A stretch of 47,281 bases of DNA from an uncultured Candidatus Saccharibacteria bacterium (GCA_964485905.1 CAZAJY010000002.1:1-47281); one strand, 5' to 3'; shown: positions 22,314 to 40,531, numbered from the stretch's first letter. The notes: generated by a model not told the origin, from the sequence alone. Translations and numbers: made by a program.

Positions 22314-22321
22314 CACCTATC

Positions 22322-23446: not shown

Positions 23447-23452
23447 AATAAA

Positions 23453-25285
23453 ATGGGAATATTTGATTTTTTAAAAAAGAAAAATGACGCTAATAAAAAA
23501 GATGAACTAACATCTTTCTTACCGCAGGAAATATATGATACTGGTGTTTTGGAATTACAAGATATTATTGCTCCGTCTGCTCTTAAAATTACTCCAAATC
23601 AAATAAATTTGGGGGATAAGATTGCTAAAACTTTTTTCATCATTTCTTATCCACGTTTTCTCACTGAAAGTTGGTTTGCCCCAATTATAAATTTAGATAA
23701 AATTTTTAATATCTCTATTTTTATTCACCCAATTGAAACGGCTAAAGTTCTCCGTCAATTTCAGAGAAAAGTGGCGGAAGTGCAGAGCCAAATCAATGAA
23801 CGCTCAAATAAAGGCTTGATTCGGGACCCAATTTTGGATACCGCTTTTCAAGATCTGGAATCTTTACGTGATAATTTACAACAAGCCCAAGAAAAACTTT
23901 TTGACGTTGGTGTTTATTTAACAATTTATGGTGATAATGAGGATGAATTAAATAAATTAGAGTCAGAAATAAAATCTATTCTGGAGTCTAAGCTGGTTTA
24001 TTTAAAACCAGCACTTTTCCAGCAAGAACAAGGTTATAAAAGCATTCTGCCAACCGCTAATGATGAATTAGGAATTCATTCTAAATTAAATTCTTCACCC
24101 CTTTCAAGTATTTTCCCTTTTGTTTCTTTTGATTTAACTTCTGACAAAGGAATTCTTTATGGTATTAATCGTCATAATGGGGGACTGGTATTATTTGATC
24201 GTTTTTCTTTAGATAACTATAATTCAGTTACCTTCGCTAAATCTGGTTCAGGAAAAAGTTATCAAACGAAACTAGAAATTCTACGCTCTCTAATGTTCGA
24301 TGTTGATGTTATTGTTATTGATCCAGAAAAAGAATATCAATTTCTATCGGAAGCCGTTGGTGGAAAAAACTTTGATATTTCTCTAAACTCCAATAACCAT
24401 ATTAATCCTTTTGATTTGCCTATGCCCCGGGAAGATGAGTCCCCAGTTGATGTCTTACGATCTAACATTATTAACTTAGTTGGTTTATTCCGAATTATGT
24501 TTGGTGGGCTAACACCAGAAGAAGACGCGATTATCGATCGTGCGGTCAGCGAAACCTATGCTCTAAAAGATATCACTCCGGAATCAGATTTCTCCAATTT
24601 GGAACCACCACTATTATCTGACTTTGAATTGGTTCTCTCGGGAATGGAGGGGGCGGAAGGTTTGGTCCAAAAATTATCGAAATATACCCGTGGTTCTTGG
24701 GCTGGTTTCATCAACCGACCAACCAATGTTGATATTAATGCTAAATTTATTGTTTTCTCTATCCGCGATATGGAAGATGACCTTAAACCCGTCGCCATGT
24801 ATATTATTACTCATTATATCTGGACCGCGATTAGAAAAGAGTTAAAGAAACGACTTTTGATAATTGATGAAGCTTGGTGGATGATGAAAAGTGAAGATAC
24901 GGCCTCTTTCTTGTTCAGTATGGCCAAAAGAGGAAGAAAATATTTCCTTGGTCTTGCCACTATTACCCAAGATGTAGATGATTTCATTAAATCACCTTAT
25001 GGTTTACCAATTGTCACCAACTCATCTATCCAAATTCTCTTAAAACAAAGCCCATCAACAGTAGATAACTTACAGAAAATATTTAATTTGACTGATGAAG
25101 AAAAGTTCTTGCTTCTAGAGTCTGATGTGGGGGAGGGGCTATTCTTTGTTGGCCAAAAACACGTGGCAATTAAAGTTATTGCATCCTACACCGAAGATCA
25201 AATTATTACTTCCGACCCATCACAATTGTTAGCAATAAAACGGGCGCGAACGGAGTTGGATTCTCAAAGCTCTTCTGTGGTATAA
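23453..25285 (+). CDS. VirB4/TrbE-like T4SS ATPase (AAA_10/DUF87-type)
   Basis: 610 aa. It has Walker A FAKSGSGKSY, Walker B LLIIDEAWWMM and ATITQDVDDF. Confidence 0.85.
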   Translation: MGIFDFLKKKNDANKKDELTSFLPQEIYDTGVLELQDIIAPSALKITPNQINLGDKIAKTFFIISYPRFLTESWFAPIINLDKIFNISIFIHPIETAKVLRQFQRKVAEVQSQINERSNKGLIRDPILDTAFQDLESLRDNLQQAQEKLFDVGVYLTIYGDNEDELNKLESEIKSILESKLVYLKPALFQQEQGYKSILPTANDELGIHSKLNSSPLSSIFPFVSFDLTSDKGILYGINRHNGGLVLFDRFSLDNYNSVTFAKSGSGKSYQTKLEILRSLMFDVDVIVIDPEKEYQFLSEAVGGKNFDISLNSNNHINPFDLPMPREDESPVDVLRSNIINLVGLFRIMFGGLTPEEDAIIDRAVSETYALKDITPESDFSNLEPPLLSDFELVLSGMEGAEGLVQKLSKYTRGSWAGFINRPTNVDINAKFIVFSIRDMEDDLKPVAMYIITHYIWTAIRKELKKRLLIIDEAWWMMKSEDTASFLFSMAKRGRKYFLGLATITQDVDDFIKSPYGLPIVTNSSIQILLKQSPSTVDNLQKIFNLTDEEKFLLLESDVGEGLFFVGQKHVAIKVIASYTEDQIITSDPSQLLAIKRARTELDSQSSSVV

Positions 25286-25292
25286 TATTAGT

Positions 25293-26033
25293 ATGAAAAA
25301 ATTACTTATTATCTCTGTATTATTCATAATTTTATCAGTATTTTTCATTTCTCCTGCTCAAGCTCAAAACAACTCTGCTGATGTCGCATTAATCTGGGAA
25401 GCCGTCTCTTATACACCGCCTTTTTATAAAGGAAAAGCCCTTAATCCCAATCAAGGAACTGTAGTGGTAGTGGCTATACCAGAAATCTCTACGGAAACTG
25501 GGCAAAAAATCAAAACTAGTGATCTAAACTATCGCTGGTATAAAAATGACATTCTACAAAATAGTTCTTCTGGTGTAGGGAAAAACCACTTTACTTTCTC
25601 TGGTTCAGTCCCAATTAGAGATATAACTATAAAAGTAATTATCTCTACTTTAGATCAAAAAGTGACTATTGAAAAGAGCGTGACTATCACCAATGTGCCA
25701 CCAAAAATAATTTTTTACGAAAATAGTCCTATTTATGGTCTAGTTTTCAACCGAGCAATTAAAAATAGTGTTAAAATGATGGCTGATGAGTTTGGAATTA
25801 AAGCTTTTCCATATTTTATGAGTATTGACGAAGCCCAAAATGCCAATTTAGATTATACTTGGACAATAAATAACCGGGCTTCATCAGGCCTAGATACTGA
25901 CAAAACCGCGATGCTTTTTCGACAGGAAATTGCTGGATCAGGAACAACTAATGTAAACCTAAAGATACAAAATAATTCCCGTATCTTTCAATTCACTGAT
26001 AATAGTTTTATAATAAATTTCGAAAAACAATAA
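25293..26033 (+). CDS. Hypothetical secreted protein
   Basis: 246 aa with a signal-like N-terminus (MKKLLIISVLFIILSVFFISPAQA). Confidence 0.55.
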   Translation: MKKLLIISVLFIILSVFFISPAQAQNNSADVALIWEAVSYTPPFYKGKALNPNQGTVVVVAIPEISTETGQKIKTSDLNYRWYKNDILQNSSSGVGKNHFTFSGSVPIRDITIKVIISTLDQKVTIEKSVTITNVPPKIIFYENSPIYGLVFNRAIKNSVKMMADEFGIKAFPYFMSIDEAQNANLDYTWTINNRASSGLDTDKTAMLFRQEIAGSGTTNVNLKIQNNSRIFQFTDNSFIINFEKQ

Positions 26034-26034
26034 T

Positions 26035-26331
26035 ATGACATATACACCATTAGAACCAACAGCTTTTGGAGGAAATCTGACCGCCAGTACCACCTTGGGT
26101 CAATTTTTATCTGAAGCTTTCCAATTTGGTCTAGCAATCGCCGCCGCCTTAGCTGTAATTATGATCGTCTGGGGTGGGGTGGAAATTATGTTATCTGAAT
26201 CACCAATGGGTAAAACCAATGGCAAAGAAAAAGTCTGGAATGCCATTTGGGGTTTAGTTTTGGCCCTGGTTTCTTGGTTAATTCTTTACACCATTAATCC
26301 AGAGATCTTAAATTGGAATGCTTTTAATTAG
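26035..26331 (+). CDS. Small two-helix membrane protein, VirB2/TrbC-pilin-like candidate
   Basis: 98 aa with two hydrophobic helices (FQFGLAIAAALAVIMIVWGGV and IWGLVLALVSWLILYTI). The size and topology are typical of T4SS pilins. The call is context-based. Confidence 0.45.
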   Translation: MTYTPLEPTAFGGNLTASTTLGQFLSEAFQFGLAIAAALAVIMIVWGGVEIMLSESPMGKTNGKEKVWNAIWGLVLALVSWLILYTINPEILNWNAFN

Positions 26332-26339
26332 AAAAATTT

Positions 26340-27593
26340 ATGCCAAAAATGTCTAAACAATCAGCTATTATCCTCATCCTCGTGGTCTTTTTAGGTGCCC
26401 TTGGTGCTCTAATTTATTTTTATTTTTCTTTTAATAGCCAGCCTCAGACCTTAAGTCCGATTACTAACCTTGATACTTATGATCCTTTTGGTACTAGGGG
26501 GGGAGATAATACAATGGCAACAACCGAAATGCCAAGTAATGTAATAGAAGAAAATCCTGTCAGTTTAACCACCGTCAGCAAACTTCGCCAAGTGTCAGCC
26601 GAACCAGTTTCTGGTTTTACTATTAGAAAAAATCCACAGACCCAGAAGACAAATATCAATTATATTTTGCGCGCCAATGGTAATATTTATGAAACTTATA
26701 CTGACTCTGTAGAACTAAGAAGGTTATCTATTACTACGGTACCAAAGGTTTATGAATCTATCTGGTTACCAGATGGTGTTAGATTAATTATTCGATATTT
26801 ACGAGAAGAGACAGAAAAAATTGATACTTTTTCTGTTAAAATCAACCCCGCCACAACCACTTTAAATGAATTTACGGGGGGAATTGATGGAAATCATTTG
26901 CCAGAAAATATTGATGGCTTAGCTATCAACCCGGCGGGTGATAAATTGTTTTATTTGGTAGATAATTTAGATGGTTCTTTTGGTTTTGTGTCCAAACCCG
27001 ATGGCCTTAATAAAAAACTTATATTTGAATCGCCATTAATTGAGTGGATTGTGTCTTGGCCAAAAGAAGAAATTATTACAATGAATACCAAGGCCTCAGC
27101 TAATATTCCCGGTTATTTATATTTCTTAAATAGTCAAACTGGAAATTTTTCAAAAATCATCGGTGGCATAAATGGTTTAACAACAAAAACAAATTTAGGA
27201 GCAACAGAAATCCTATATTCCGATAGTACCGAGGGCACACCTAAATTATATTTGTTTGATGTTAAAAAAGGGGAGAGTAAACCCCTGCCTTGGAATACTC
27301 TGCCAGAAAAATGTACTTGGAGTAAAATTGATTCAAAAATAATCTACTGTGCTGTACCAAAAAACTTTCCTACCGGGGATTACCCAGATCTTTGGTATCA
27401 AGGTTTAGTTAATTTTACAGATGATATTTGGTTAATGAATATCGAAACAGGAGCTGCAACTTTGGTCATAGATTTAGCAAAAGATGCCAATCAAATTATG
27501 GATATTAGTGATATGCAATTAGACAAAACTGACAATTATTTAGTCTTCACAAATAAAATAGATTTGACTTTGTGGAGTTTAGACCTTAAATAG
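26340..27593 (+). CDS. Hypothetical membrane-anchored protein (beta-rich ectodomain)
   Basis: 417 aa with an N-terminal TM (AIILILVVFLGALGALIYFYF). The remainder looks like repetitive beta-strand (propeller-like) sequence. Confidence 0.5.
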   Translation: MPKMSKQSAIILILVVFLGALGALIYFYFSFNSQPQTLSPITNLDTYDPFGTRGGDNTMATTEMPSNVIEENPVSLTTVSKLRQVSAEPVSGFTIRKNPQTQKTNINYILRANGNIYETYTDSVELRRLSITTVPKVYESIWLPDGVRLIIRYLREETEKIDTFSVKINPATTTLNEFTGGIDGNHLPENIDGLAINPAGDKLFYLVDNLDGSFGFVSKPDGLNKKLIFESPLIEWIVSWPKEEIITMNTKASANIPGYLYFLNSQTGNFSKIIGGINGLTTKTNLGATEILYSDSTEGTPKLYLFDVKKGESKPLPWNTLPEKCTWSKIDSKIIYCAVPKNFPTGDYPDLWYQGLVNFTDDIWLMNIETGAATLVIDLAKDANQIMDISDMQLDKTDNYLVFTNKIDLTLWSLDLK

Positions 27594-28050
27594 CAAGATA
27601 TTTTACCTTTACTTTTCTATCTTTTCCTTCACCAACAGATTCAGTACTAATATCTGGATAACTGGTTAATGTGCTGTGTACTACCATTCTCTCATAAGAC
27701 GACATCGGTGCCATCACGACATCTGTCTTCGAATTTTTTGCTTCCTCTGCGGCGCTTATCGCCTTCATTTTTATCTTATCATCAGATTTTGCCTGTAAAT
27801 CATTAATATCAATTGTACATTTAAAAGTTTCTTCGCCTGAAAAACTATTCTTATTAAAAAGTCTTTTTAAAAGATAAACTAAATCTCGGGCCAAGTCTTC
27901 TTTCTCCATAGAAACTTTTTCAAATTCAGCACTTTTAATTGAAAAAATATGCCCCCTCTTTTCGTTTAAGGAATATTCGATAGACTCTGTAGGTATTCCT
28001 AATAGATTGAAAATCTCTCCTATTGTTTTTTTTGCTTTTTCTATATCCAT
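27586..28050 (-). CDS. jag: Jag/KhpB-type RNA-binding protein (KH plus R3H)
   Basis: 154 aa. The C-terminal R3H-type segment is MSSYERMVVHSTLTSYPDISTESVGEG. It holds the conserved position downstream of yidC. Confidence 0.8.
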   Translation of the reverse strand: MDIEKAKKTIGEIFNLLGIPTESIEYSLNEKRGHIFSIKSAEFEKVSMEKEDLARDLVYLLKRLFNKNSFSGEETFKCTIDINDLQAKSDDKIKMKAISAAEEAKNSKTDVVMAPMSSYERMVVHSTLTSYPDISTESVGEGKDRKVKVKYLAI

Positions 28051-28169
28051 CCCGTTTGAAGTTTTACTAATTATTAATAATTACTATACTACATTTTATT
28101 TTCTAAAAATCAACATGGTCACCGAACTATCTTCCCCGAACTTCGAGCGGGATCCATTTTTTAAATTTA

Positions 28170-28910
28170 TTATTTATCTTCTTTTTTTAATTTCTTTCTC
28201 ATATAAACTTCCTGACCGACTGCAAAGACACTAGAGGTAATCAAATAAAGGGAAACGAGTGAGGCAAAGCTACGGGCGATGAAAAACATAAAAACGGGCA
28301 TTACATATTTCATCTGCATACTCATACTCTTGGCTAATTCCCCCTGGAAAGAAGTGTCTTTAGGCGCCCCTTCCACCTTCTTGGCCGCTGGCATTGTTAA
28401 TTTAATTTGTAAAAACTGCCCTACCGCAACCACAACCGCTAGTATAGTGCTTTTTTGTGTAATGTCAAAGAATCCTAGAAACATACTATTAATGTGTTCT
28501 GGGGCATGAATAAATGAGTAGAGTAAATCAATATTAATATTTGTTATTCCACCCCTATAGAAGACCATATAAAGAGCAATCAAAATAGGAAGTTGAATTA
28601 AAGCTAAAAAGATCCCAGAAAAGGGACTAACGCCCCTTTCTTTATATAAAGCCATTGTTTTAAGGGCTTGTTCTTGTTTATTGTCTTTGTATTTTACCTT
28701 AATTTCATCAATTTCGGGCTGAATTTTCTTCATTTCAATCTGACTACGAACTGATTTTTGCGAAAGAGGGAATAAAATTAGCTTTATTAGCACGGTAAAT
28801 AAAATAACCACAATACCAGCATCTATCCAAGGAAAAGTGCCTATAAAGCCAATAAAAGCGTTGTAGAGGGGTCTATATAAGATCAGATTAAAAACGTTAC
28901 CAATCATCAA
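28170..28910 (-). CDS. yidC: Membrane protein insertase YidC (short form)
   Basis: 246 aa and polytopic. Motifs are KKIQPEIDEIKVKYKDNKQEQ and GVSPFSGIFLALIQLPILIALY, in synteny with rnpA and rpmH. Confidence 0.9.
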   Translation of the reverse strand: MMIGNVFNLILYRPLYNAFIGFIGTFPWIDAGIVVILFTVLIKLILFPLSQKSVRSQIEMKKIQPEIDEIKVKYKDNKQEQALKTMALYKERGVSPFSGIFLALIQLPILIALYMVFYRGGITNINIDLLYSFIHAPEHINSMFLGFFDITQKSTILAVVVAVGQFLQIKLTMPAAKKVEGAPKDTSFQGELAKSMSMQMKYVMPVFMFFIARSFASLVSLYLITSSVFAVGQEVYMRKKLKKEDK

Positions 28911-28938
28911 AAGAGTATACCTTAAAAGAGGATTATTT

Positions 28939-29280
28939 TCAACTTAGGATTTTTGCCTTTTTTAATAATTCCCAAATATCTTTCTCTATTTCATTGAATG
29001 ATAGTTTGGAAATGTCTTTTTTAGTAAAAATTATGACAGACCAACCATTTTTAATGTCTGATAAAGCTTTTTCCACCACCGCTGTCATCTTTCTTTTAAT
29101 CAAATGTCTACCAACCGATGTCTTTTTTACCTTATTTGGCACCACAAAACTGAAAAGGGTGGGTGATTGGTCATTTTTTAATAGAAAGCGTAGATAAAAA
29201 TTGTCCCCATGCACAAAAACACCCTCTTTCATAATTTTTTCGAAAGATTCTTTTTTTACCCTTCGGTTAATAGATAGCAT
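28939..29280 (-). CDS. rnpA: Ribonuclease P protein component
   Basis: 113-aa basic protein located directly downstream of rpmH and upstream of yidC. Confidence 0.8.
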   Translation of the reverse strand: MLSINRRVKKESFEKIMKEGVFVHGDNFYLRFLLKNDQSPTLFSFVVPNKVKKTSVGRHLIKRKMTAVVEKALSDIKNGWSVIIFTKKDISKLSFNEIEKDIWELLKKAKILS

Positions 29281-29285
29281 AAAGA

Positions 29286-29423
29286 TTAAACCGTGCTTAA
29301 GCGCTTGCGCCCTTTTTGTCTTCTCTTTTTAAGGACTCTTTTGCCATAAGACTTTCGGCTTCTAGATAAAAAACCGTGTTTTTTAGCCCTTTTTGCCTTC
29401 TTTGGTTTATATGTAAATGACAT
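29286..29423 (-). CDS. rpmH: 50S ribosomal protein L34
   Basis: Not in the ORF track because it is under 60 aa. My minus-strand translation is [45 protein letters not shown] (45 aa), the canonical L34 pattern. Confidence 0.9.
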   Translation of the reverse strand: [45 protein letters not shown]

Positions 29424-29563
29424 AACAAAGAGTATAGTTTATTTTTTATGAAACGTCAAATACAAAGCCAAGAAGTTTCCCCCAATTTTTCCACAGCTTA
29501 TAAACAAATAGGGGTCTTGTGTATAACTTCCACACTTTAAAATTTAGTATATAATCATAAGGC
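29424..29563. promoter_or_regulatory. rpmH-dnaA divergent intergenic region with DnaA-box-like 9-mers
   Basis: TTTTCCACA at 29487-29495 (8/9 to TTATCCACA) and TGTGTATAA at 29518-29526 (8/9 to TGTGGATAA). Confidence 0.4.
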
Positions 29564-30910
29564 ATGACAGAAGAAAATAAAAAACTTTGGCAAAATGTTT
29601 TATCGGAGATCGAATTGTCTATTTCTAAGGCCAATTTTAATATGTGGTTTAAAGATACCTTCATTAGTAAGCAAGAAGAGGGGACGGTTTTTGTTGGTGT
29701 TCCAAATGTCTTTGTTAAGGACTGGTTAATTAATAAATATCATAAAAATATCTTAAAAAGCTTACGTAGTTTTGGTGAACATATTCATGCAATTGAATAT
29801 TTGGTAATCAAGCCAGAAATTAAAAAGGTCCCGGTTAAAGAAAATCAAGAAATAGTAGATCATAATGAACTTCCTTTACAAGATTTTTATATTAACAAAG
29901 AAGATAATTTAAATTCTAAATATACTTTTGAAACGTTCGTTGTCGGACCATTTAATGAATTAGCTTATGCTGCCACCCAGGCGATAATAAAAAGGACGGC
30001 AATTTATAATCCACTTTTCGTTTATGGAGGTACCGGCCACGGAAAAACTCATTTAATTCAAGCGGTTGGTAATCATATTCGAAACAACGGTCTGAACAAA
30101 AAGGTTTTTTATTTAACTTCTGAAAAATTTGCTGTAGATTTAATAAATTCTATTTCTAATGGTACAGCTAATCAATTTAAGGAAAAATATCGCAAATATG
30201 ATGTTTTAATTATTGATGATGTGCAATTTTTCTCTGGTAAACAAAAAGTGGAAGAAGAGTTTTTCCATTTATTCAATAATTTCTATGATAATAATAAGCA
30301 AATTATCTTTTCCTCTGATAAACACCCAAATTTTATTCAGGGGCTAGAAGATCGTTTAAAATCAAGGCTTAATTCGGGAATGATAGTAGAAATTCCCAGT
30401 CCAGACCTGGAGTCACGTATTCAGATATTTAAAGTAAAGTCTGGTATGTTAAATTTCTCTCTATCGCCTGAAATTATAGAGTATTTAGCTTCATCGTTGG
30501 AAGGCAATATCCGAGAGTTAGAGGGGGTTTTAAACTCTATTATCTGCCAATCTAAGTTAAAAGGGCGTGATTTAACAATTACGGAAATAAAAGATTTGAT
30601 TAAAAATAATCTCAAGCCTAAGAAAAATTCCTCAATAACAGACGTTATAAAAACGGTCGCAGAGTTTTATGGCATAACAGAAAACGAAATTTATGAAAAA
30701 ACCAGAAAAAAAGCCGTTGTTAAACCACGACAAATAATTATGTATATTCTAAGAGAAGATTTTGATGTTTCTTATCCAACCATCGGAGAAAAGTTGGGGG
30801 GGAAAGACCACACGACCGTTATGCACTCGTATGAAAAAATAAAAGAAGATATAAAAACAAATTCTTCCTTAACCAGAGAGCTTAGTCAGATTCGTTCAAT
30901 GATAACCTAG
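29564..30910 (+). CDS. dnaA: Chromosomal replication initiator protein DnaA
   Basis: 448 aa. Motifs are Walker A GGTGHGKTHL, Walker B VLIIDDVQF, sensor NIRELEG and the domain IV segment GGKDHTTVMHSYEKI. Confidence 0.97.
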   Translation: MTEENKKLWQNVLSEIELSISKANFNMWFKDTFISKQEEGTVFVGVPNVFVKDWLINKYHKNILKSLRSFGEHIHAIEYLVIKPEIKKVPVKENQEIVDHNELPLQDFYINKEDNLNSKYTFETFVVGPFNELAYAATQAIIKRTAIYNPLFVYGGTGHGKTHLIQAVGNHIRNNGLNKKVFYLTSEKFAVDLINSISNGTANQFKEKYRKYDVLIIDDVQFFSGKQKVEEEFFHLFNNFYDNNKQIIFSSDKHPNFIQGLEDRLKSRLNSGMIVEIPSPDLESRIQIFKVKSGMLNFSLSPEIIEYLASSLEGNIRELEGVLNSIICQSKLKGRDLTITEIKDLIKNNLKPKKNSSITDVIKTVAEFYGITENEIYEKTRKKAVVKPRQIIMYILREDFDVSYPTIGEKLGGKDHTTVMHSYEKIKEDIKTNSSLTRELSQIRSMIT

Positions 30911-31125
30911 GGAAAGGCTGTGTAAAAACATTGGATTAAATGTTGAAAAGGTTTGGATAAAAGTTAATTCAAAAAAAATAAAATCTTAAAAACAAAAAGT
31001 TAAAATGTTTTATTAACCAGTTAAAAAATAAATAATTTAAAAAATGAAGATATATAACAATAAAAAAACTTATCCACTTATCCACCTATATAATAATAAT
31101 ATTCTTAATTAATTAAATAAAATAT
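30911..31125. other. Candidate oriC (dnaA-dnaN spacer): DnaA boxes plus an extremely AT-rich unwinding region
   Basis: Overlapping tandem boxes are TTATCCACT (31070-31078) and TTATCCACC (31078-31086), each 8/9. TTTGGATAA lies at 30952-30960 (8/9, reverse orientation). A long A/T run lies between them. Confidence 0.65.
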
Positions 31126-32226
31126 ATGAAAGTTGAATGTCTAAAAGAAAAATTTTGTTCCGCCGTTTCAAAAGTAGAAAAAATTACCGGTAAAAATATG
31201 ACATTACCGATTTTATCCTGCATTTTAATTGAAGCTAAAGGAAATTTTTTAATTTTGAAAGCAACTAATCTTGATTTAGGTATAGAAATCAAAATACCAG
31301 CCAAGGTTTTACAAGAAGGAATTGTGGCTGTTCCGGGGATTATTTTAAATAGTTTTTTAACAAATTTAACTGGGGATCATAATCTAAAAATAGAAGCCAA
31401 AGATGGGAATCTGTCTATTTTAGGCTCAAATAGTCAAACAACAATAAAAAGCTTACCAAATGAAGATTTTCCAACAATACCAAAAGTTAAAGATGGCAAA
31501 ATTTATGAAATAGAAGCACAAAGTTTAATAAAAGGTTTAAAATCTGTATGGTATAGCGCTTCTTTATCAAGTATTAAACCAGAATTATCTAGTGTTTATA
31601 TTCATGCAAAAGAAGAGGGTTTGGTTTTTGTAGCCACTGACTCCTTCCGTCTAGCCGAGAAAATGGTTAAGTTTAAGAAGAATAATGAATTCGAGCAAAT
31701 TTTAATGCCATTTAAAAATGTTGCTGACCTCCTTAAAATTATTAGTGATGAAAAAGATTCTCTTGCTATTAATTTTACTAAAAATCAAATATCTTTTGAG
31801 TACGGGGACACTTATATTGTTTCTAGAATAATTGATGGGGTCTTTCCTGATTATCAACAGATTATTGCCAAAGACTTTAAGACTGAAGTAATTATACTTA
31901 AACAAGATTTAATAAATATACTTAAATTATCAAACGTTTTCTCTGATAGTTTTAATCAAATTAATATAAAAGTTTCACCGAAGGAAAAAACCTTAGAATT
32001 AAGATCAAAAAATTCTAGTGTTGGAGAGAATGTTAATAAATTATCCGCCATGATTACTGGTGAAGAAATTGAAATAAATTTCAATCATAAATATATTATA
32101 GATTGTTTCCAGTCCATTGATTCTGACAGCGTCTCATTGTCTTTTAATGGACTAAATAAGCCAATGGTCATCCGTGGAATTTCGGACAAATCTTTCACCT
32201 ATCTTGTGATGCCAATGAACCGTTAG
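31126..32226 (+). CDS. dnaN: DNA polymerase III beta sliding clamp
   Basis: 366 aa. It sits immediately after dnaA, has the typical three-domain length and ends with the conserved ...LVMPMNR. Confidence 0.93.
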   Translation: MKVECLKEKFCSAVSKVEKITGKNMTLPILSCILIEAKGNFLILKATNLDLGIEIKIPAKVLQEGIVAVPGIILNSFLTNLTGDHNLKIEAKDGNLSILGSNSQTTIKSLPNEDFPTIPKVKDGKIYEIEAQSLIKGLKSVWYSASLSSIKPELSSVYIHAKEEGLVFVATDSFRLAEKMVKFKKNNEFEQILMPFKNVADLLKIISDEKDSLAINFTKNQISFEYGDTYIVSRIIDGVFPDYQQIIAKDFKTEVIILKQDLINILKLSNVFSDSFNQINIKVSPKEKTLELRSKNSSVGENVNKLSAMITGEEIEINFNHKYIIDCFQSIDSDSVSLSFNGLNKPMVIRGISDKSFTYLVMPMNR

Positions 32227-32242
32227 GGGGTAGTATCAAATA

Positions 32243-32271
32243 CAAACACAAAGGTTTAACCTTGGTTTGAC
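32243..32271. repeat. Module-boundary palindrome S1 (AAGGTT-T-AACCTT core)
   Basis: CAAACACAAAGGTTTAACCTTGGTTTGAC, nested in an outer inverted repeat AAATACAAA (32238-32246) / TTTGTATTT (32276-32284). It begins 17 nt after the dnaN stop. Confidence 0.6.
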
Positions 32272-32352
32272 ATATTTTGTATTTAATGTAAAGTGAAAGA
32301 GGAAGTAGGAAATAGGAGTCCTTTACGTCGCAAACAATAGGAGGGAGACAGT

Positions 32353-33129
32353 ATGAAATGGCCGGAGTTGATGCTCATGATTCGACATGACGTGTCCGAA
32401 TACAATGTGCTCAAGAAGAAAAAGGAGGGAAGCGTCCTATACTGGGAATTCCTTCAGCATTTCAAGCAAGACCCTAACTCAGAGGAGACTCGCCGTTTGG
32501 CCCTTGGGGTTCAAGAGGCGTTCGCCATGGGAATGGGTGATGCTGACACCAATTTGGTGGATGAGGAAGCGGATCGGGCCAGCAAAACTGGCGCAGCCCT
32601 TCGGAGTCTGTATCTGGAGAGACCACCTCACATTATCTTCGTCTCACCATATCGGCGAACCAAGCTGACCTTGTCGGGTTTGAAGCGGGGCTGGCCGGAA
32701 CTAGACGGAGTGAAGGTGGTGGAGGACGAGAGAATTCGCGAGCAGGAGCACGGTCTATCCTTGCTCTACAATGACTGGCGAGTATTTCATGTTCTGCATC
32801 CAGAGCAAGCGGCTCTGCGCAAACTCGAAGGTGCTTACTGGTACCGCTACCCTCAAGGAGAGAGCGTGCCGGACATGAGGGAGAGGAATCGCTCGTGGAT
32901 GGGTACTGTGGTTCGGGACTTTGCTGAAAGGCGGGTTCTGGCCGTTACGCACCATCTGAACATTCTGGGTGTCAGAGCCCATTTGGAAAGATGGAGTGCC
33001 AACAGATTCATTCAAGAGGATCAACAGGACAAGCCGATCAACTGCGGCGTGACGGCTTATTGTGGTCATCCGGAAAAAGGGGAAGACGGACACTTCCTTC
33101 TGGATTACTACAATCGGTGTTTGTGCTAG
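32353..33129 (+). CDS. Histidine phosphatase superfamily (phosphoglycerate-mutase-like) protein, GC-rich foreign gene
   Basis: 258 aa. It has an RH catalytic motif near the N-terminus (LMIRHDVSEYN), a second His motif (AVTHHLNI) and a strong SD (GGAGGG) 7 nt upstream. Its composition is clearly different from the flanks. Confidence 0.75.
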   Translation: MKWPELMLMIRHDVSEYNVLKKKKEGSVLYWEFLQHFKQDPNSEETRRLALGVQEAFAMGMGDADTNLVDEEADRASKTGAALRSLYLERPPHIIFVSPYRRTKLTLSGLKRGWPELDGVKVVEDERIREQEHGLSLLYNDWRVFHVLHPEQAALRKLEGAYWYRYPQGESVPDMRERNRSWMGTVVRDFAERRVLAVTHHLNILGVRAHLERWSANRFIQEDQQDKPINCGVTAYCGHPEKGEDGHFLLDYYNRCLC

Positions 33130-33297: not shown

Positions 33298-34113
33298 ATG
33301 TTTTTAGGAGATTTGTGGTACACTTTTGTTATGAGTGAAAATAAAATGATAGAATCTAATACCGAACAAAGGAAAATGGGCGGGGAATTAAAACAAAAAG
33401 CAGAATTTTCTATAGAAAAAGCTAAGCGGGTTATTTTAAATAATATTCCCGACGAGGAAATTATTTCTATTTATGTAAAAGGTAGTTATGCTCAAGGCGA
33501 ACTTCAACCAGATAGTGATGTTGATGTAGTGGTAATCCTTAAAACTGAGGAATATTTACCAAAAGTTTATACTCTGGATACTAACACTTCTAATCCTACA
33601 GAAATTCCCTTTGCTATTGTGGCCTACACATTAAAGGAACTACAAACTGGAGAGAAAGCGGTTAATCGCCCTAAAATTTCTTCTCCTGTTAGTGTTTTTG
33701 TAAAACAATTAGACTTTTTACCACTTATTTATGGCGAAAAGCCAGAAGGGAATTTGTTTACTAGGACAGATAAGAAAGATCTAACTGCCCACCCGAGTGC
33801 ATTTCATAGTACTTTTTTACCTGACTATGTGGTCGGTAAATTTTCTATTCAGGAATTAGTTAAGCAAGCCCTTTGGCTAGCAGATAGGGAACAAAGGTTG
33901 CTGGGTAATGTCCAAGGATATTCTTGGCAAGCTCTTTCTGATTCTGTAAAAGATAAAGATCACATCATCCACACCACCCTCCGTCTTCGCCGACAAGCGA
34001 AAATCTCCACCTTAGAAAAAGCTGATTTTGTACAAAAGCTAGAAACTTATCTTAGTTTTCTTGAGAGTAATTATAATCAGACTAATTTCAAACAAGGTTT
34101 AACTTTGTTCTGA
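33298..34113 (+). CDS. Nucleotidyltransferase-domain protein (Pol-beta superfamily; size and architecture reminiscent of ANT/aadA-type adenylyltransferases)
   Basis: 271 aa as given; the true start could be a downstream Met. It carries the minimal NTase signature VKGSYAQGELQPDSDVDVVVIL. The last codons (QGLTLF*) are encoded by palindrome S3. Confidence 0.6.
   Translation: MFLGDLWYTFVMSENKMIESNTEQRKMGGELKQKAEFSIEKAKRVILNNIPDEEIISIYVKGSYAQGELQPDSDVDVVVILKTEEYLPKVYTLDTNTSNPTEIPFAIVAYTLKELQTGEKAVNRPKISSPVSVFVKQLDFLPLIYGEKPEGNLFTRTDKKDLTAHPSAFHSTFLPDYVVGKFSIQELVKQALWLADREQRLLGNVQGYSWQALSDSVKDKDHIIHTTLRLRRQAKISTLEKADFVQKLETYLSFLESNYNQTNFKQGLTLF
34088..34113. repeat. Module-boundary palindrome S3
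   Basis: TCAAACAAGGTTTAACTTTGTTCTGA has the same AAGGTTTAAC core as S1/S2 and overlaps the stop codon of the NTase gene. Confidence 0.55.
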
Positions 34114-34147: not shown

Positions 34148-34627
34148 ATGAAAATAGAGACTAGTTGGATTTCAAAGAGGACGGGGAAAGAGGTCAGGGC
34201 CTATTTTGAAGAGGCCGATGACTTTTCTAATTTACCTCAAGAAAAAATAAAAAGCATTTGTGCTTTTTGCTATCTGGACGGACAATTTGTAGTGGTAAAA
34301 AATAATTCAAATTGGGAACCGGTCGCCGGACATGTGGAGGTGGGGGAAACACCAGAACAAGCTTTGATTCGAGAAATAAAAGAGGAATCAAATATGAAAG
34401 TCTTAAAATGTTTTCCTATTGGTTATCTTTATACTTATGGGGAAAATATTTATCAAACGCGGTATTTGTGTTTGGTGGAGCCCTATGGTCCTTTTGTCAG
34501 CGATCCCGATGGTGGGGTGACAGAAATCAAGTTAGTCAAACCAGAGGATCTTCCCTCGGTCATTGATTGGCGTGACACCGCCCTTTTGATGAAGGATCGC
34601 TGTCTCAAAATTCTTACTAATCTTTAA
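34148..34627 (+). CDS. NUDIX hydrolase
   Basis: 159 aa with the Nudix box GHVEVGETPEQALIREIKEESNM (G-x5-E-x7-REUxEExGU pattern). Confidence 0.85.
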   Translation: MKIETSWISKRTGKEVRAYFEEADDFSNLPQEKIKSICAFCYLDGQFVVVKNNSNWEPVAGHVEVGETPEQALIREIKEESNMKVLKCFPIGYLYTYGENIYQTRYLCLVEPYGPFVSDPDGGVTEIKLVKPEDLPSVIDWRDTALLMKDRCLKILTNL

Positions 34628-35310: not shown

Positions 35311-36201
35311 ATGTCTATACAAAAACCAATAAAAAATCGAATTCAGGAATTGAAGGTTGAATATGATACTTTGCGCAAAGGCAAGGAGTCCCTTTTGTCT
35401 CTACTTGATGAAGCAGAAGCCCCGGAAAGCGTGTACAATTCAAACGCTATAGAAAATTCTACTTTAACCCTCAAAGAGACAGAGAAAATTCTTTTAGAAA
35501 TGGAAGTCTCACGCGATGTCTCAGTCAGGGAAATTTTTGAAGCAAAAAATCTAGCCAGAGTGATTTCTTATACTAGAGAAAAATCACAAGTCGAAGAATT
35601 ATCAAAAGAATTGATCCTATTACTTCATAAAATGCTGATTGGGAATATTAATGATTCTATCGCCGGACGTTTCAGAAAAATTGGAGAATATGTCAGAGTT
35701 GGCACACACGTCGCCCCAGCGCCAGAACATGTAGAAAAAATGATCGAGTCTATTCTGTCGGAATACGGCAGTAATCACGAATTATATTTTTTGGAAAAGA
35801 TTTCAAAGTTTCATCTTGATTTTGAAACTATCCACCCATTTTGTGATGGCAATGGCCGTATTGGTCGGGTCCTTATGAATTTTCAGTTGTTGCGTTTTGG
35901 TTTTCCACGTTTGATTATTCGTGATAAGGAAAAGAAACTTTACTATCAGTCATTTGGTGATTATCGTGATACAAAAAAGACCAAGACTATGGACAGGGTT
36001 ATTTCTTTAGGGCTTTTGGAATCACTTAATAAGCGTGTAGCTTACTTGAAAGGCAACCCCATTATCACTTTAGCTGATTATGCTAAGAAAAATAATATTA
36101 AGACCCCAATCTTATTAAACGCCTCTCGTCGCCAAACTATCTCGGCTTTTAGAGAAAAAGGTGTATGGAAAATCGCTGAGAATTTTATTTATGAAGCCTA
36201 A
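35311..36201 (+). CDS. Fic-domain protein (AMPylase-type, class II with an N-terminal inhibitory motif)
   Basis: 296 aa. It has the canonical active-site motif HPFCDGNGRIGR (HxFx[D/E]GNGRxxR) and an N-terminal SNAIEN matching the (S/T)xxxE(G/N) auto-inhibition helix. Confidence 0.85.
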   Translation: MSIQKPIKNRIQELKVEYDTLRKGKESLLSLLDEAEAPESVYNSNAIENSTLTLKETEKILLEMEVSRDVSVREIFEAKNLARVISYTREKSQVEELSKELILLLHKMLIGNINDSIAGRFRKIGEYVRVGTHVAPAPEHVEKMIESILSEYGSNHELYFLEKISKFHLDFETIHPFCDGNGRIGRVLMNFQLLRFGFPRLIIRDKEKKLYYQSFGDYRDTKKTKTMDRVISLGLLESLNKRVAYLKGNPIITLADYAKKNNIKTPILLNASRRQTISAFREKGVWKIAENFIYEA

Positions 36202-36499
36202 AACAAAACAACTTTTTCGGAAAATCGTTCGGGACTGTGCGGATTGCGGGCGGGAAATGACCGTGTATATTTACGCTGATAAAAAGAAGAATAATTATCG
36301 GGGTGGGCATTACTTCGGCAAGATTGGTATTTGTTCTAAAAAAGAAAATGAAAAAATGTTTAAGTCTGGCATCAGAAAATCAAAATTCGGCAAGCTTGTT
36401 TTAAATGTCTATAAATACGAAGCTAAACCTTATAAATATCTCGAATATTGGGAATGCCCAAGGTGTTATTGGGGGAGGGGGAATACCAAAGCGTCATAA
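36191..36499 (+). CDS. Small basic zinc-ribbon protein, overlapping the Fic gene end
   Basis: I prefer the ATG at 36191 (MKPKTKQ...), which overlaps the Fic gene end (36201) by 11 nt. Two CxxC pairs are present (CADCG ... CPRCYW). Confidence 0.5.
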   Translation: MKPKTKQLFRKIVRDCADCGREMTVYIYADKKKNNYRGGHYFGKIGICSKKENEKMFKSGIRKSKFGKLVLNVYKYEAKPYKYLEYWECPRCYWGRGNTKAS

Positions 36500-36513: not shown

Positions 36514-36547
36514 GAACGGCTCAACGAGATTACTCGTTGAGCCGTTC
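36514..36547 (+). terminator. 15-bp perfect hairpin after the Fic/zinc-ribbon operon
   Basis: GAACGGCTCAACGAG-ATTA-CTCGTTGAGCCGTTC, followed by GCTTTGGTT (a weak T tract). Confidence 0.55.
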
Positions 36548-36591: not shown

Positions 36592-37365
36592 ATGAAAAAC
36601 CTTAAGGAACTAACTAAAAGAAGAGACGATATTCTCGTAGAGATCAAAGATTTGAAAAAGAGGCATGATATATCATGCAATATTTATAATATGGACTGCT
36701 CGGAATTAATATCTAGGATGATTAAAAATGAAATAATCGTTGATTCTATAATAACAGATCCACCTTATAATGTGAGTAGAAAGAATCAACTTGGGTATTC
36801 AAACATGGGTAGGAGTGGAATGAATTATGGTGTTTGGGACTATGATTTTGATCAAATAAAATGGTTAAAAAATATTTCAAAGGTCATTAAACCAGGTGGT
36901 ACTATTATTATCTTTAATAATTGGAAAAATATGGGTGATATTGCTAAGGAACTTGAAAAGCAAGGTTTTATTGTTAAGGACCTAATTCGTTGGGTAAAAA
37001 GTAATCCTATGCCAAGAAATGTCGATCGTAGATATGTTAACGATTATGAATTAGCAATATGGGCTGTTATGGATGGTTCACAATGGACATTTAATAAGCC
37101 AAAAGAGAATTCATATATTCGCCCAGAATTTAGAACAGGAGTTGCTTCTGGTGGTAAAAATAGAATTCATCCAACACAGAAAAATCTGAAGTTGATTGAA
37201 AATATATTACAAATTCATACAAATGAAGGCGATGTCGTTTTTGATCCGTTTCTTGGTTCTGGCACCACAGCGGTTGCGGTATTAAATTGTAAAAGAAAAA
37301 TTATAGGATCAGAGATAGACGAAAAATATTTTAATAAGACACTAGAAAGGATTAAAAATGATTAA
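36592..37365 (+). CDS. Beta-class N6-adenine/N4-cytosine DNA methyltransferase (N6_N4_Mtase family)
   Basis: 257 aa. Motif IV (IITDPPYN) precedes motif I (VFDPFLGSGTTAVA), which is the beta-class order. DPPY favours m6A. Confidence 0.85.
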   Translation: MKNLKELTKRRDDILVEIKDLKKRHDISCNIYNMDCSELISRMIKNEIIVDSIITDPPYNVSRKNQLGYSNMGRSGMNYGVWDYDFDQIKWLKNISKVIKPGGTIIIFNNWKNMGDIAKELEKQGFIVKDLIRWVKSNPMPRNVDRRYVNDYELAIWAVMDGSQWTFNKPKENSYIRPEFRTGVASGGKNRIHPTQKNLKLIENILQIHTNEGDVVFDPFLGSGTTAVAVLNCKRKIIGSEIDEKYFNKTLERIKND

Positions 37366-38227
37366 CTCTCCATTAAATTATACCGGCAACAAATTTAAGG
37401 TACTTAAACAGATTATACCATTGTTAAGTACTGATAAAAAAATAATCTGCGATGTGTTTTGCGGTAGTGGATTGGTCTCATTGAACTCAAATTACAGTAG
37501 GATAATTATGAACGATAATTTTTCTCAAATTATTGACATAATTAATATGTTTATGGATGAAGATTTAGATTCATTAATCAGAGAGATTGATTGCATGATT
37601 AATAAATATGGTTTTACTGATACATATAAAAATAATAAGTCTAAATATTTAGAGAAAAAACATGAGGGTCTATCAAAATATAATAAAGAACCGTTTGAAA
37701 GACTTCGTTCGGATTATATTAATAGACCTACTCCGCTCTTATTATTCATATTAACCATATTTAGCTTTAATCATTATATTAGGTTTAACAAGAAAGGCGT
37801 ATATAATTTACCTGTAGGAAAGGTCGATTTTTCGAAATCTTTAAGAGAAAAAACAAAGATGTATTCAGAAGCCTTGAAACTAAAGAATATAACTTTATTA
37901 AATAAAGATTTTAGAGATAAGCTATTATATGAAAAGGATGCCTTATATTATTTTGATCCCCCATATTTAATCACAAGTGCACCGTATAATACAAACTGGG
38001 GCATAGATGAGGAGTGTCAATTATTAAAAATACTCGATGGGCTAGACTTAAAAGGTAAGAAGTTTGCACTTTCAAATGTTTTGCGTTCTAATGGAAAAGA
38101 AAATAGCATTTTAATCAAATGGAGTAAAAAATATCATATTCATAAAATTAATAGAAAATATACTAATTCAAGTTACCAAAAGAAAAATTTATCAGAAGCA
38201 GAAGAGGTCTTAATAACTAATTATTAA
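37358..38227 (+). CDS. Dam-like (D12 class, alpha) DNA adenine methyltransferase
   Basis: 289 aa. Motifs are NYTGNK near the N-terminus, motif I DVFCGSGLV and motif IV YYFDPPYL. It overlaps the upstream MTase gene by 8 nt. Confidence 0.85.
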   Translation: MINSPLNYTGNKFKVLKQIIPLLSTDKKIICDVFCGSGLVSLNSNYSRIIMNDNFSQIIDIINMFMDEDLDSLIREIDCMINKYGFTDTYKNNKSKYLEKKHEGLSKYNKEPFERLRSDYINRPTPLLLFILTIFSFNHYIRFNKKGVYNLPVGKVDFSKSLREKTKMYSEALKLKNITLLNKDFRDKLLYEKDALYYFDPPYLITSAPYNTNWGIDEECQLLKILDGLDLKGKKFALSNVLRSNGKENSILIKWSKKYHIHKINRKYTNSSYQKKNLSEAEEVLITNY

Positions 38228-38232
38228 TATAT

Positions 38233-40425
38233 ATGGGAACAGCAGGAAACAGAAAAGGTTACAAGGTATTCTCAATTAATACAACAATTAGAAACCCACA
38301 AAGGAATATAGATTTCCTAAAAGTGGTAGCGAATTTTGACGGCTTCAGATTGACCACCAATAATAAGTTAAAGATTTATCATGAATTTATTAAGAATGGA
38401 GTATATATACCTAATAATATTAGTAATGAAATCTTTGATAAGATTAAAAACAAAATTCCGCTAGACGATAAGGAAATATATAAGATAGTTAACGATAACC
38501 CACAAGAAACTGGAAATAATGGTAGAGTTATGACCCAAATTAGGGCTTTGAAAGATTTAGAATTTATTGCGTTGCGTGGCAAAAGAAACCAGCTAATACT
38601 AACTATCACAAAACTTGGTAGAGAATATATAAATGGTGAGGATGTAGAAATCATATATACAAAATCGTTGCTAGGGATGCATTATGGAAACATAAATAGA
38701 AAAACTGTTTTAAACAAGGCGAGACCTTTTCTAAATACAATCTTTATTCTCGATTATTTAAATCGATACTATGAGATAAATGATCCGGAATCAGATTTCC
38801 TAAAAAATGGGATATTATTTCATGAATTTGGAGGGTTTATTCTGTCTATGAAGGATTGTAATTATAAAATAGTAGCTGATCAAATTATTTCATATCGAAG
38901 AGAATTTACTAAGAAATTTAATCCTGATTATTTTAAATCGTATTTTATTGGGAATGGTATTATTAGTTTGAAGGATGAGACTTTTACTTCAGAGTATCCT
39001 GACGAGATAATAAGAAAATTCTCAATGACTGGATTACTTGAGGTGCACGGTAGATCAAAGTATTCCTATATAAGATTTGTTGGATTTAATATTATCAAAA
39101 TAAAGCAGCTTATTAGTAAATATTCGGATTATAAATATGAAGATTTTAATAATGAGGCTGATTATGAAAAATATGTTTCGAATGTCTTCATCCCGTGGGA
39201 GTCTTCCGCTGTTGAAAAAGAGGAAATAATTAATAACCAACTTGCGCAAATTAAGTCATTAGATAAGACATTTGAATTACCTCCAGGTATTGTTGGTGAT
39301 GAAAGGTTAAGGGCTCTTGATAAAAAGAATAGTGAATTTATTTTCAGAGATAAGGTAATAGAAGTTGAGTTTAAGAATATTTATAGAGAACTTCTAATAC
39401 TATCAAGAGAACTAAAGACCAAATCTGAATATGAAGAGACAATACCTGAACCTGTTAGGTTGGAATGGTTAATAGCTTTATTATTTGCAAAACAATATGG
39501 GCATCAATTTGTTAAGCCATCAATGAGACTTAATCCTGATGGGACACCAAAAAGCTTTGCTGGATCTGGTAAGGCAGACATAGTTTTTGAGGATCGTATG
39601 CACATGTATATATTAGAAGCGACTATGATGTCTGGCTCGAATCAACAAGAGAATAGTGAAACTACCTCTGTATCCTCACATTTGAAAGACTATAGTATTA
39701 ACAATAAGTTTAATGGTGCGTTGCTAGTGGCACCAAAGATCCATAATCGTGTAGCAAAATATTTTCAATTTATATTTAATGTTGATCAGTCATTTATGTT
39801 GCCTGTGAGTATTAAACTTTTCTCCTCGGTTGTTGAAAACAATAAGACGATCGATTCTTTCACACAGAATTATAAAGAGATCCATAGTCGACTAATTAAT
39901 TCTGGTTCTAATGTCGAGTCTTTTGTTGATTCTGTGAATCAAGGTGCAGAGGGTAGTTTTAAGGATATAATTATAGAAAAAGAGAAGGATTCTGTTACAG
40001 GAGAGGAGATCTTATCATCTTACACTGGAGCTATGATTAATTTACCACTATATGAATCTGTTGGTTGTGGGGAATTAATGAAGGCAGAAATAATTTCTGA
40101 GGAAACGATTGCTGTACCAAAAAGCTACCTTTCGTCAGGATCAAAGTATTTTGTTCTCAGGGTCACCGGTGATTCTATGAATAAGGCAGGAATAAACGAC
40201 GGAGATTTAGTTTTGTGTGTGAAAAACTATCATCCAGAAATTGGTAATAAAGTGGTTGCGTTAATTGGAGACGACGCAACAATAAAAGAATACCATAATA
40301 ATGGTAAGGTCGTGACTTTAAAACCACGTTCCGATAATCCAAAACATCAACCTCTAGTTTTTACAGATAATGAGGAGATGAAAGTTTTAGGTGTGGTGGT
40401 TAGAGTTTTAGATCAAGAATTATAA
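38233..40425 (+). CDS. AlwI/N.BstNBI-family type IIS restriction endonuclease fused to a C-terminal LexA/UmuD-like S24 peptidase domain
   Basis: 730 aa in one frame. AlwI-family blocks are INTTIRNPQRNIDFLKVVANFDG, GSGKADIVFEDRMHMYILEATMMSGSNQQENSETTSVSSHL, LLVAPKIH and MLPVSIKLF. The S24 module covers residues ~600-730: LPLYESVGCGELM, FVLRVTGDSMNKAGINDGDLVL, ATIKEY and VLGVVVRVL. Confidence 0.8.
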   Translation: MGTAGNRKGYKVFSINTTIRNPQRNIDFLKVVANFDGFRLTTNNKLKIYHEFIKNGVYIPNNISNEIFDKIKNKIPLDDKEIYKIVNDNPQETGNNGRVMTQIRALKDLEFIALRGKRNQLILTITKLGREYINGEDVEIIYTKSLLGMHYGNINRKTVLNKARPFLNTIFILDYLNRYYEINDPESDFLKNGILFHEFGGFILSMKDCNYKIVADQIISYRREFTKKFNPDYFKSYFIGNGIISLKDETFTSEYPDEIIRKFSMTGLLEVHGRSKYSYIRFVGFNIIKIKQLISKYSDYKYEDFNNEADYEKYVSNVFIPWESSAVEKEEIINNQLAQIKSLDKTFELPPGIVGDERLRALDKKNSEFIFRDKVIEVEFKNIYRELLILSRELKTKSEYEETIPEPVRLEWLIALLFAKQYGHQFVKPSMRLNPDGTPKSFAGSGKADIVFEDRMHMYILEATMMSGSNQQENSETTSVSSHLKDYSINNKFNGALLVAPKIHNRVAKYFQFIFNVDQSFMLPVSIKLFSSVVENNKTIDSFTQNYKEIHSRLINSGSNVESFVDSVNQGAEGSFKDIIIEKEKDSVTGEEILSSYTGAMINLPLYESVGCGELMKAEIISEETIAVPKSYLSSGSKYFVLRVTGDSMNKAGINDGDLVLCVKNYHPEIGNKVVALIGDDATIKEYHNNGKVVTLKPRSDNPKHQPLVFTDNEEMKVLGVVVRVLDQEL

Positions 40426-40531
40426 AACAGAAAACTCATTCACCCCATTCGCCAAAAATGGCGAATGAAAATTATTTGGAGTGAAGAACATAAAATTTGA
40501 TGATTTTGGGGCGGTGTGATAGCATAAAATT

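Follow-up and report, generated by a model that had tools for sequence, protein, structure and literature searches.

Introduction

Can a restriction enzyme carry within its own chain the means to be switched by DNA damage? This question is raised by an open reading frame (ORF) on a 47,281-nt contig of Candidatus Saccharibacteria, which was analyzed over its whole length and is called the window in the following. The ORF (38233-40425, + strand) consists of a complete nuclease of the AlwI type, located where the repressor LexA has its helix-turn-helix (HTH), and a complete self-cleavage module of the S24 (LexA/UmuD) type.

Restriction enzymes endanger their own cell when repair or recombination leaves unmethylated sites. 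In the reviews on restriction-modification (R-M) checked (PMC12707154, PMC3874165), a damage-responsive safety mechanism is described for type I systems only, namely alleviation by ClpXP. How type II systems cope is a largely open question, and a self-cleaving tail responsive to RecA filaments on single-stranded DNA (ssDNA), hereafter RecA*, would be a simple answer, if true. With reversed polarity, the same tail would represent a new kind of infection-triggered restriction. S24 tails are found on several restriction enzymes that are unrelated to each other, and this suggests that restriction can be linked to the damage signal in a way not yet described. Their recurrence on many unrelated nucleases speaks for a general principle and not for an isolated oddity. 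For practical purposes, such a protein could offer restriction or nicking with an activity or oligomeric state that is switched by a defined proteolytic event.

Architecture of the fusion ORF

The ORF starts with ATG and forms one frame of 730 amino acids (aa; 83.8 kDa) without an internal stop. The following features were assigned.

38233..40425, + strand: whole fusion ORF, 730 aa, 83.8 kDa, stop codon included
38233..39942, + strand: AlwI-family type IIS nuclease body, residues 1-570, colinear with unfused relatives of 568-570 aa to their last sense codon
39424..39903, + strand: catalytic domain, residues 398-557, aligning to the BspD6I small subunit 2p14
39577-39579, 39616-39618 and 39658-39660, + strand: acidic residues D449, E462 and E476, invariant in the family
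39943..40013, + strand: unique junction/linker, residues 571 to about 594, GAEGSFKDIIIEKEKDSVTGEEIL, without DNA homology to either parent family
40014..40422, + strand: S24 (LexA/UmuD-type) module, residues about 595-730, with the Pfam match to residues 605-723 at 40045-40401
40066..40071, + strand: predicted scissile bond Cys612-Gly613 (TGT GGG), aligned to Ala-Gly of LexA and Cys-Gly of UmuD
40174..40176, + strand: Ser648, predicted nucleophile (GDSM), invariant column
40285..40287, + strand: Lys685, predicted general base (ATIKEY), invariant column

A first reading of this DNA, made from the sequence only, had described a single uninterrupted 730-aa frame with these two parts. The frame was borne out, and all residue numbers given at that time are correct: D449 lies in GSGKADIVFED, E462-A-T464 in YILEATMM, Ser648 in RVTGDSM and Lys685 in ATIKEY, and Cys612-Gly613 is encoded by TGTGGG at 40066-40071. 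Also, the two domain assignments were supported by profile searches. The Pfam model RE_AlwI (PF09491) matched residues 119-514 with 89.1 bits against a cut-off of 23.1 (E = 4.2e-25), and Peptidase_S24 (PF00717) matched residues 605-723 with 83.7 bits against 23.3 (E = 9.9e-24), covering profile positions 1-116 of 116. Both matches thus lie above the Pfam cut-offs and do not overlap.

The nuclease body

The nuclease body agrees with the AlwI family in sequence and in predicted fold. D449, E462, T464 and E476 are invariant among 52 aligned AlwI-family sequences, and a sequence search against PDB aligned the small catalytic subunit of BspD6I (2p14) to residues 398-557. A model built with the 52-member family alignment is confident over residues about 5-570. 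In a Foldseek search, this model matched the N.BspD6I nickase over its full length (E = 5e-16, template modelling (TM) score 0.57 by target, ~660 columns) and the small subunit 2p14 with a TM score of 0.75, while FokI (E = 8e-6) and the recognition domain of BpuJI were weaker matches. The predicted order of N-terminal recognition domains followed by a C-terminal catalytic domain with a single site is that of N.BspD6I/N.BstNBI. The assignment to the AlwI/N.BstNBI type in the sequence-only reading therefore holds on the Pfam match and the full-length fold match, and the body is, as judged by profile and model, a genuine type IIS restriction endonuclease of the AlwI family. PADLOC, which has no model for the AlwI-S24 architecture, recognized only a generic REase_II (residues 10-538, 1.1e-29).

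For the recognition site, the occurrence of GGATC, GAGTC, GATC and others in the window was compared with Markov expectation, and no clear signal of avoidance was obtained. Among the AlwI relatives, a D12 methyltransferase precedes the nuclease in the same chain in P0014 and P0019 (856-886 aa), and P0020 (890 aa) is extended at its C-terminus by a part with PF18899; according to these sequences, the family takes terminal fusions readily.

The self-cleavage module

Alignments place all residues predicted for self-cleavage in register with the S24 family. In the PDB sequence search, the best LexA match was the Thermotoga protein 3k2z (E = 3e-14), with Ala-Gly under Cys612-Gly613 and GESM under GDSM; the counterparts of Ser648 and Lys685 in T. 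maritima LexA are the serine of GESM and the lysine of TLAK. Gly613, Ser648 and Lys685 are invariant in an alignment of 18 S24 sequences, and Cys612 is near-invariant, being swapped only for the Ala of LexA. The E. coli LexA and UmuD rows of this alignment were entered by hand. Cys-Gly is the scissile form stated for UmuD (PMC8565304). The view that everything required for autoproteolysis is present thus stands as far as sequence requirements go. The predicted cleavage products have computed masses of 70.8 kDa (residues 1-612, ending ...LPLYESVGC) and 13.0 kDa (residues 613-730).

For structure prediction, the full protein was folded with nuclease-family rows only, and residues 571-730 were folded separately with a 60-sequence alignment. 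The separate model has a mean predicted local distance difference test (pLDDT) of 82 and a beta-rich core above 90, and its first ~30 residues are disordered. Its best superposition by Foldseek was on the LexA C-domain 1jhe, with a TM score of 0.88 by target and a root mean square deviation (rmsd) of 2.1 Å. LexA bound to the RecA filament (8gms; TM 0.87 by target, rmsd 2.3 Å) and UmuD' (1umu; TM 0.81 by target, rmsd 5.2 Å) were matched as well, and further matches were more LexA entries, lambda CI and the UmuD-RecA structure 8gmt.

A LexA repressor proper was tried as an assignment of the ORF and rejected: neither LexA_DNA_bind nor an HTH was found, and the NCBIfam lexA equivalog (TIGR00498) scored 81.9 bits against a cut-off of 110.95, over residues 596-726 only.

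Junction and origin of the fusion

Comparison with unfused relatives locates the junction to the nucleotide. The 11 closest relatives are 72-76% identical at the protein level, have 568-570 aa and all lack S24. DNA identity to the unfused operons L001-L004 amounts to 76% from 36639 to 39942 and ends exactly at their last sense codon, where the window has GGT (39943) and the relatives have the stop codon TAA. The 71-nt linker (24 codons) was modelled as low-confidence or disordered. From 40014 to just past the stop, the DNA is about 70% identical to S24 genes linked to helicases. Read-through into a neighboring S24 gene was ruled out, since what lies behind the nuclease gene of the closest relatives is non-coding DNA (about 220 nt) and small ORFs of unrelated kinds. 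As read from these alignments, the fusion arose by replacement of the stop codon and an in-frame join via the 24-residue linker.

The exact fusion of the window was seen once (a cluster of one member on one contig), a junction-peptide scan of metagenome contigs gave no second copy, and all 11 closest relatives end at residue 568-570. These observations would fit an artefact, in which chimeric assembly or a sequencing error removed the stop codon and the real nuclease has 570 aa. We consider this unlikely, because the join is clean and in-frame with a unique linker and because parallel fusions exist elsewhere. The two parents are separated by 71 nt of unique coding sequence instead of abutting at a shared repeat, and the S24 part is only about 70% identical at the DNA level to any other locus retrieved, so that nothing retrieved was similar enough to have served as the source gene in a chimeric join. 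The fused ORF ends shortly before a terminator-like hairpin, no S24 gene lies behind the nuclease in the relatives, and a second AlwI clade shows the same architecture in independent assemblies.

At L001/L002 (1-13713), the sister R-M operon without the fusion lies between two phage-type integrase genes and adjoins an OLD-family nuclease (AAA_15/21 + TOPRIM). On this gene content, the sister cassette travels in a mobile defence island.

Source of the S24 module

Residues 571-730 have their nearest relatives in the C-termini of helicase proteins with PF09848 (DUF2075/SLFN-g3) rather than in repressors. These relatives are 62-76% identical and have the stretch SPYxGxMINLPLYESVGCGE in common. Down to about 47% identity, 25 of the 26 loci found in reference genomes encode helicase-S24 proteins of 670-780 aa, six of which have an N-terminal GIY-YIG nuclease; most of these loci are labelled as Patescibacteria lineages (Saccharibacteria, Paceibacterota, Nomurabacteria and others). 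ORFs of LexA length (~207 aa) appeared in this Patescibacteria-rich scan only below about 48% identity. The same helicase-S24 architecture was found at 41 of 43 loci on metagenome contigs. Against the C-terminal modules of the (GIY-YIG-)DUF2075 proteins in both scans, which were rich in Patescibacteria, the S24 of the window shows 57-85% identity.

These helicase-S24 proteins match the PADLOC models Nhi and AbiO, and a nuclease combined with DUF2075 is how the anti-phage proteins called Nhi and Nhi-like are built (Millman et al. 2022 preprint). Judged by sequence relationship, the module of the window came from an Nhi-like (GIY-YIG-)DUF2075 helicase-S24 family abundant in Patescibacteria.

Recurrence on other nucleases and conserved chemistry

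A search for the same kind of fusion elsewhere, as proposed in the sequence-only reading, revealed S24 tails that recur by independent events on several unrelated restriction and defence enzymes. S24 of the window type caps an HNH nuclease located after a C5-methylase fragment and an N6_N4 methylase (L102; S24 81% identical to that of the window). It also caps a Sau3AI-like nuclease with a MutH domain, adjoining a C5 methylase and an AIPR gene (L131 = P0335; also P0336).

A second AlwI clade (P0031, P0038, P0046 and P0050; 737-750 aa) has an S24 tail within the same operon of two methyltransferases and a restriction enzyme (M-M-R), and was found in several ENA/Logan assemblies. Its S24 is only 27.7% identical to that of the window, and its body is 86% identical to the unfused 567-aa protein P0053, to which it is closer than to one of its fused cousins. 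The two AlwI-S24 fusions are therefore separate events. S24 domains of a second type were located at the C-termini of HsdR (P0248, P0259, P0292, plus the type I operon in L095), on HsdS (P0262, named restriction endonuclease subunit S by NCBI, P0274, P0285, P0291 and P0241), on the DUF2075 helicase P0267 and on a different type II nuclease (P0268, P0276). This second set of assemblies includes a record of Paludibacteraceae (Bacteroidota).

The residues predicted for cleavage are retained in both types. GDSM is present in all 69 window-type carriers, every cleavage loop printed for them has Cys-Gly, and 53 of the 69 have ATIK, while the other 16 miss the strict pattern (e.g. ATLK in L131). For the second type, KGxSM was found in 66 of 90 sequences, the rest giving no match to the regular expression and including several short fragments; TIK was found in 82 of 90, and Cys is at P1 in 51 of 56 scorable sequences. 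To judge from these sequences, selection maintains the cleavage chemistry across many independent fusions.

This conservation bears on a purely structural role, in which S24 would be a permanent domain for dimerisation or for tethering to the RecA filament and regulated self-cleavage would be no part of its function. S24 domains are the dimerisation modules of LexA/CI (PMC10584840), and AlwI-type enzymes need dimers for double-strand cuts. However, a structural role would not preserve the scissile Cys/Ala-Gly, Ser and Lys, and all of them persist in two S24 types with a mutual identity of only 28% and in dozens of carriers at 50-85% identity. We therefore regard this role as improbable.

More broadly, we tentatively propose, as a quite possible reading, that portable LexA-type self-cleaving modules control restriction nucleases and related defence nucleases in general, as a regulatory layer not described so far, and would wire them to the RecA* damage/ssDNA signal; the enzyme of the window would then be the first restriction enzyme of type II to carry a proteolytic control that is built in and responds to damage. 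The families acquiring such modules independently would be AlwI (twice), MutH/Sau3AI-like, HNH, another type II enzyme, HsdR, HsdS and the Nhi-like helicase-nucleases.

Some carriers have unusual arrangements. The type I operon in L095 (4378-7825) comprises HsdM, a DUF4062/HATPase_c_4 protein, HsdS and HsdR; here, an S24-bearing ORF of 274 aa shares 14 nt, read in another frame, with the end of the ORF for the 878-aa HsdR, and is either part of a frameshift-split HsdR-S24 fusion or a separate tail gene. P0342 (704 aa) has three S24 stretches in an architecture without a nuclease.

Proposed mechanism

We regard it as probable on balance that the protein is a restriction enzyme controlled by RecA*-stimulated self-cleavage, with damage-induced restriction alleviation as the favored outcome. 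The S24 domains would dimerise in the manner of LexA, thereby holding two nuclease catalytic domains together. RecA*, or another cue, would lead S24 to cut its own chain at Cys612-Gly613 via Ser648 and Lys685, releasing the 70.8-kDa nuclease with a new C-terminus and the 13-kDa S24 fragment. Restriction would be turned down with the loss of enforced dimerisation, and the new C-terminal end might be a protease signal, as in LexA. Such a shut-off would shield unmethylated chromosomal sites arising in recombinational repair.

For the polarity of the switch, shut-off is favored for several reasons. The unfused relatives are already complete R-M systems, and the partners of S24 include HsdS and HsdR. 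AlwI and MlyI are homodimers and become top-strand nickases when dimerisation is impaired (PMC3017599), which also gives a literature basis to the dimerisation argument of the sequence-only reading. LexA cleavage reveals latent ClpX signals (PMC10584840). Finally, type I enzymes undergo damage-induced alleviation of restriction by proteolysis (PMC12707154, PMC3874165), an established need in these systems.

The opposite polarity is a serious rival, to which we nevertheless assign a rather low probability. Here, the uncleaved tail would restrain or mislocalise the nuclease, and RecA* formed on phage or damaged DNA would trigger a cleavage that frees the fully active enzyme, resulting in infection-gated or suicide-type restriction. 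UmuD is a precedent for activation through S24 cleavage, and the UmuD-RecA structure 8gmt is among the matches of the S24 model. The conserved cleavage chemistry and the RecA*-type fold fit activation equally, the donor family is defence-like (Nhi/AbiO matches), and the neighbors of carriers include Fic/SoFic-like and AIPR abortive-infection genes. However, the body needs no activator, since its closest tail-less relatives, encoded beside the same two methylases, are complete nucleases at 568-570 aa; the two cognate methylases are kept as in constitutive R-M; and an inhibitory tail is less sensible on HsdS, which is also needed for methylation. The sequence-only reading had predicted a damage-gated or infection-gated system. 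Of this, the architecture, the cleavage residues and the basis in dimerisation stood, while activation as the polarity is no better supported and shut-off fits at least as well.

A further alternative concerns the cue. S24 might act on or sense something besides host RecA*, by trans-cleavage, by response to a phage recombinase or anti-SOS factor, or by RecA-independent stress cleavage. A RecA-independent LexA-like protein, IrvR, is described in PMC7101444. S24 also occurs in non-nuclease contexts, e.g. in P0417 (761 aa), where two S24 stretches are combined with pentapeptide repeats and a trypsin-like peptidase, and as a separate gene behind a helicase at L009-L011. We give this alternative little weight, as the nearest non-fused relatives are ordinary LexA-type repressors (the ~207-aa, HTH-bearing proteins P0137 and P0140 with a Cys-Gly site, 45-49% identical to the module) and the S24 model closely matches RecA-bound LexA. 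These LexA-type proteins also connect the module to the damage sensor of its hosts, which speaks for the favored reading; a comparative study of the DNA-damage regulon in Patescibacteria is cited in PMC8565304.

Several points weigh against control by RecA*-stimulated self-cleavage. At L009 (4385-6429), and likewise at L010 and L011 from what is one population, S24 of the window type is a separate gene of 142 aa, located 26 nt after a DUF2075 helicase of 529 aa, and the module may therefore act otherwise than as a detachable tail; this arrangement could be a split helicase-S24 or a frameshift. In the full-length model, pLDDT is below 50 beyond residue 580 and S24 is not confidently placed relative to the nuclease, so that this model has no structural bearing on dimer geometry or autoinhibition. 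The predicted new C-terminus ...ESVGC differs from ...VAA of LexA, which weighs on the degron idea. Neither recA nor lexA was found in the 47-kb window, so that the trigger in this genome is a presumed one. To these are added the single occurrence of the exact fusion and the lack of a second junction copy given above. We infer self-cleavage itself, its dependence on RecA*, the oligomeric state and the direction of the switch.

At L009-L011, the helicase and S24 genes are preceded by genes for a MazG-like protein and an AAA_15/21 ATPase and followed by one for a zeta toxin.

Operon and genomic setting

The nuclease is the last gene of an M-M-R operon bracketed by hairpins, with a gap of 5 nt to the second methyltransferase gene. 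The same trio was found in relatives, and apart from the tail the operon is an ordinary-looking type IIS R-M system.

36514..36547, + strand: very strong hairpin with a 15-bp stem from a scan for terminator-like structures, between a 112-aa ORF and the first methyltransferase, at the upstream edge of the R-M unit
36592..37365, + strand: methyltransferase 1 (N6_N4_Mtase, beta-class; PF01555, E = 4.9e-43), first gene of the operon
37358..38227, + strand: methyltransferase 2 (D12/Dam-class N6-adenine; PF02086, E = 4e-29), 8-nt overlap with methyltransferase 1
40446..40467, + strand: terminator-like hairpin with a 9-bp stem, 21 nt past the stop of the fusion, fold energy -19.1 kcal/mol, z = -5.2
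27586-32226: replication-origin neighborhood with an R3H-domain gene (- strand), yidC (- strand), rnpA (- strand), dnaA (+ strand) and dnaN (+ strand)

Methyltransferase 2 reached 112.7 bits with the NCBIfam Dam family, just below the cut-off of 114.85.

The window covers part of a bacterial chromosome of low GC content, surrounding the replication origin. The operon lies in a variable stretch after dnaN, together with genes for a histidine phosphatase, a nucleotidyltransferase, a NUDIX protein and a Fic protein, followed by PBP1a, tyrS and ruvC. The Fic gene (35311-36201) is directly upstream of the operon and matches the PADLOC models PDC-S04 and SoFic with E-values down to 4e-38. The nucleotidyltransferase (33298-34113) has weak matches to PDC-S09/cyclase models, and the NUDIX gene is located at 34148-34627. 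This gene content suggests a small defence island next to dnaN. The 112-aa ORF (36161-36499) has paired Cys motifs (CADCG...CPRCYWG) and a zinc-ribbon-like look without a Pfam match.

The lowest GC content of the window was found in the block 31001-32000 (26.6%), which lies mostly within dnaN. The histidine-phosphatase gene (32353-33129) is located in a 1-kb block (32001-33000) with 47% GC, while other nearby blocks have about 29-40%, and may have been acquired recently from a foreign source, at the border of the variable region. Further upstream, the window contains at 12892-27593 a run of large ORFs (784, 599, 753 and 417 aa) with few or no Pfam matches, together with a TraG/VirB4-like P-loop ATPase (23453-25285) and an AAA_14/DUF4143 ATPase (18211-19344).

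Comparison with known systems

The sequence-only reading knew of no characterized restriction enzyme with this architecture, and none is described in the literature searched or in the large R-M reviews. The latter contain no S24 peptidase or LexA-type domain on restriction enzymes, the one occurrence of 'lexA' being in a reference title. In the open literature, fusions of S24/LexA to restriction enzymes, DUF2075 or HsdR gave only incidental co-occurrences; the search covered open sources, with REBASE and non-open literature outside its scope. Likewise, built-in proteolytic control of type II enzymes was not found described in the literature searched.

With the AlwI/MlyI/PleI/N.BstNBI (N.BspD6I) family, the protein has the profile, the overall fold and the invariant acidic residues in common, and also the operon style of an asymmetric site with two methyltransferases. 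Characterized members and closest relatives of this family end at about 560-600 aa, whereas the protein of the window adds 160 aa of linker and S24. With LexA, UmuD and lambda CI, it shares the full S24 profile, the Ser-Lys dyad and the fold of the LexA C-domain, the Cys-Gly bond being the UmuD form. Unlike LexA, it has no HTH and its N-terminal partner is a nuclease of 570 aa, so that it is not a transcription factor. With Nhi and Nhi-like proteins, only the S24 tail is common, as the ORF lacks the PF09848 DUF2075 helicase; in the literature searched, no description of Nhi or Nhi-like proteins with such a tail was found.

The proposed logic is that of HsdR alleviation in EcoKI, i.e. proteolytic shut-off when damage or recombination creates unmodified chromosomal sites (PMC12707154, PMC3874165, PMC11109961), and HsdR and HsdS themselves carry S24 tails in some loci. 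In EcoKI, however, the host protease ClpXP acts in trans on the translocating complex, whereas in the enzyme of the window the protease would be built in and triggered by RecA*. Enzymes of the FokI type likewise have one catalytic site per chain and need a dimer for a double-strand break (PMC3017599). Dimerisation of FokI is transient and occurs via the cleavage domain, whereas for the enzyme of the window a dedicated, detachable dimerisation domain is proposed.

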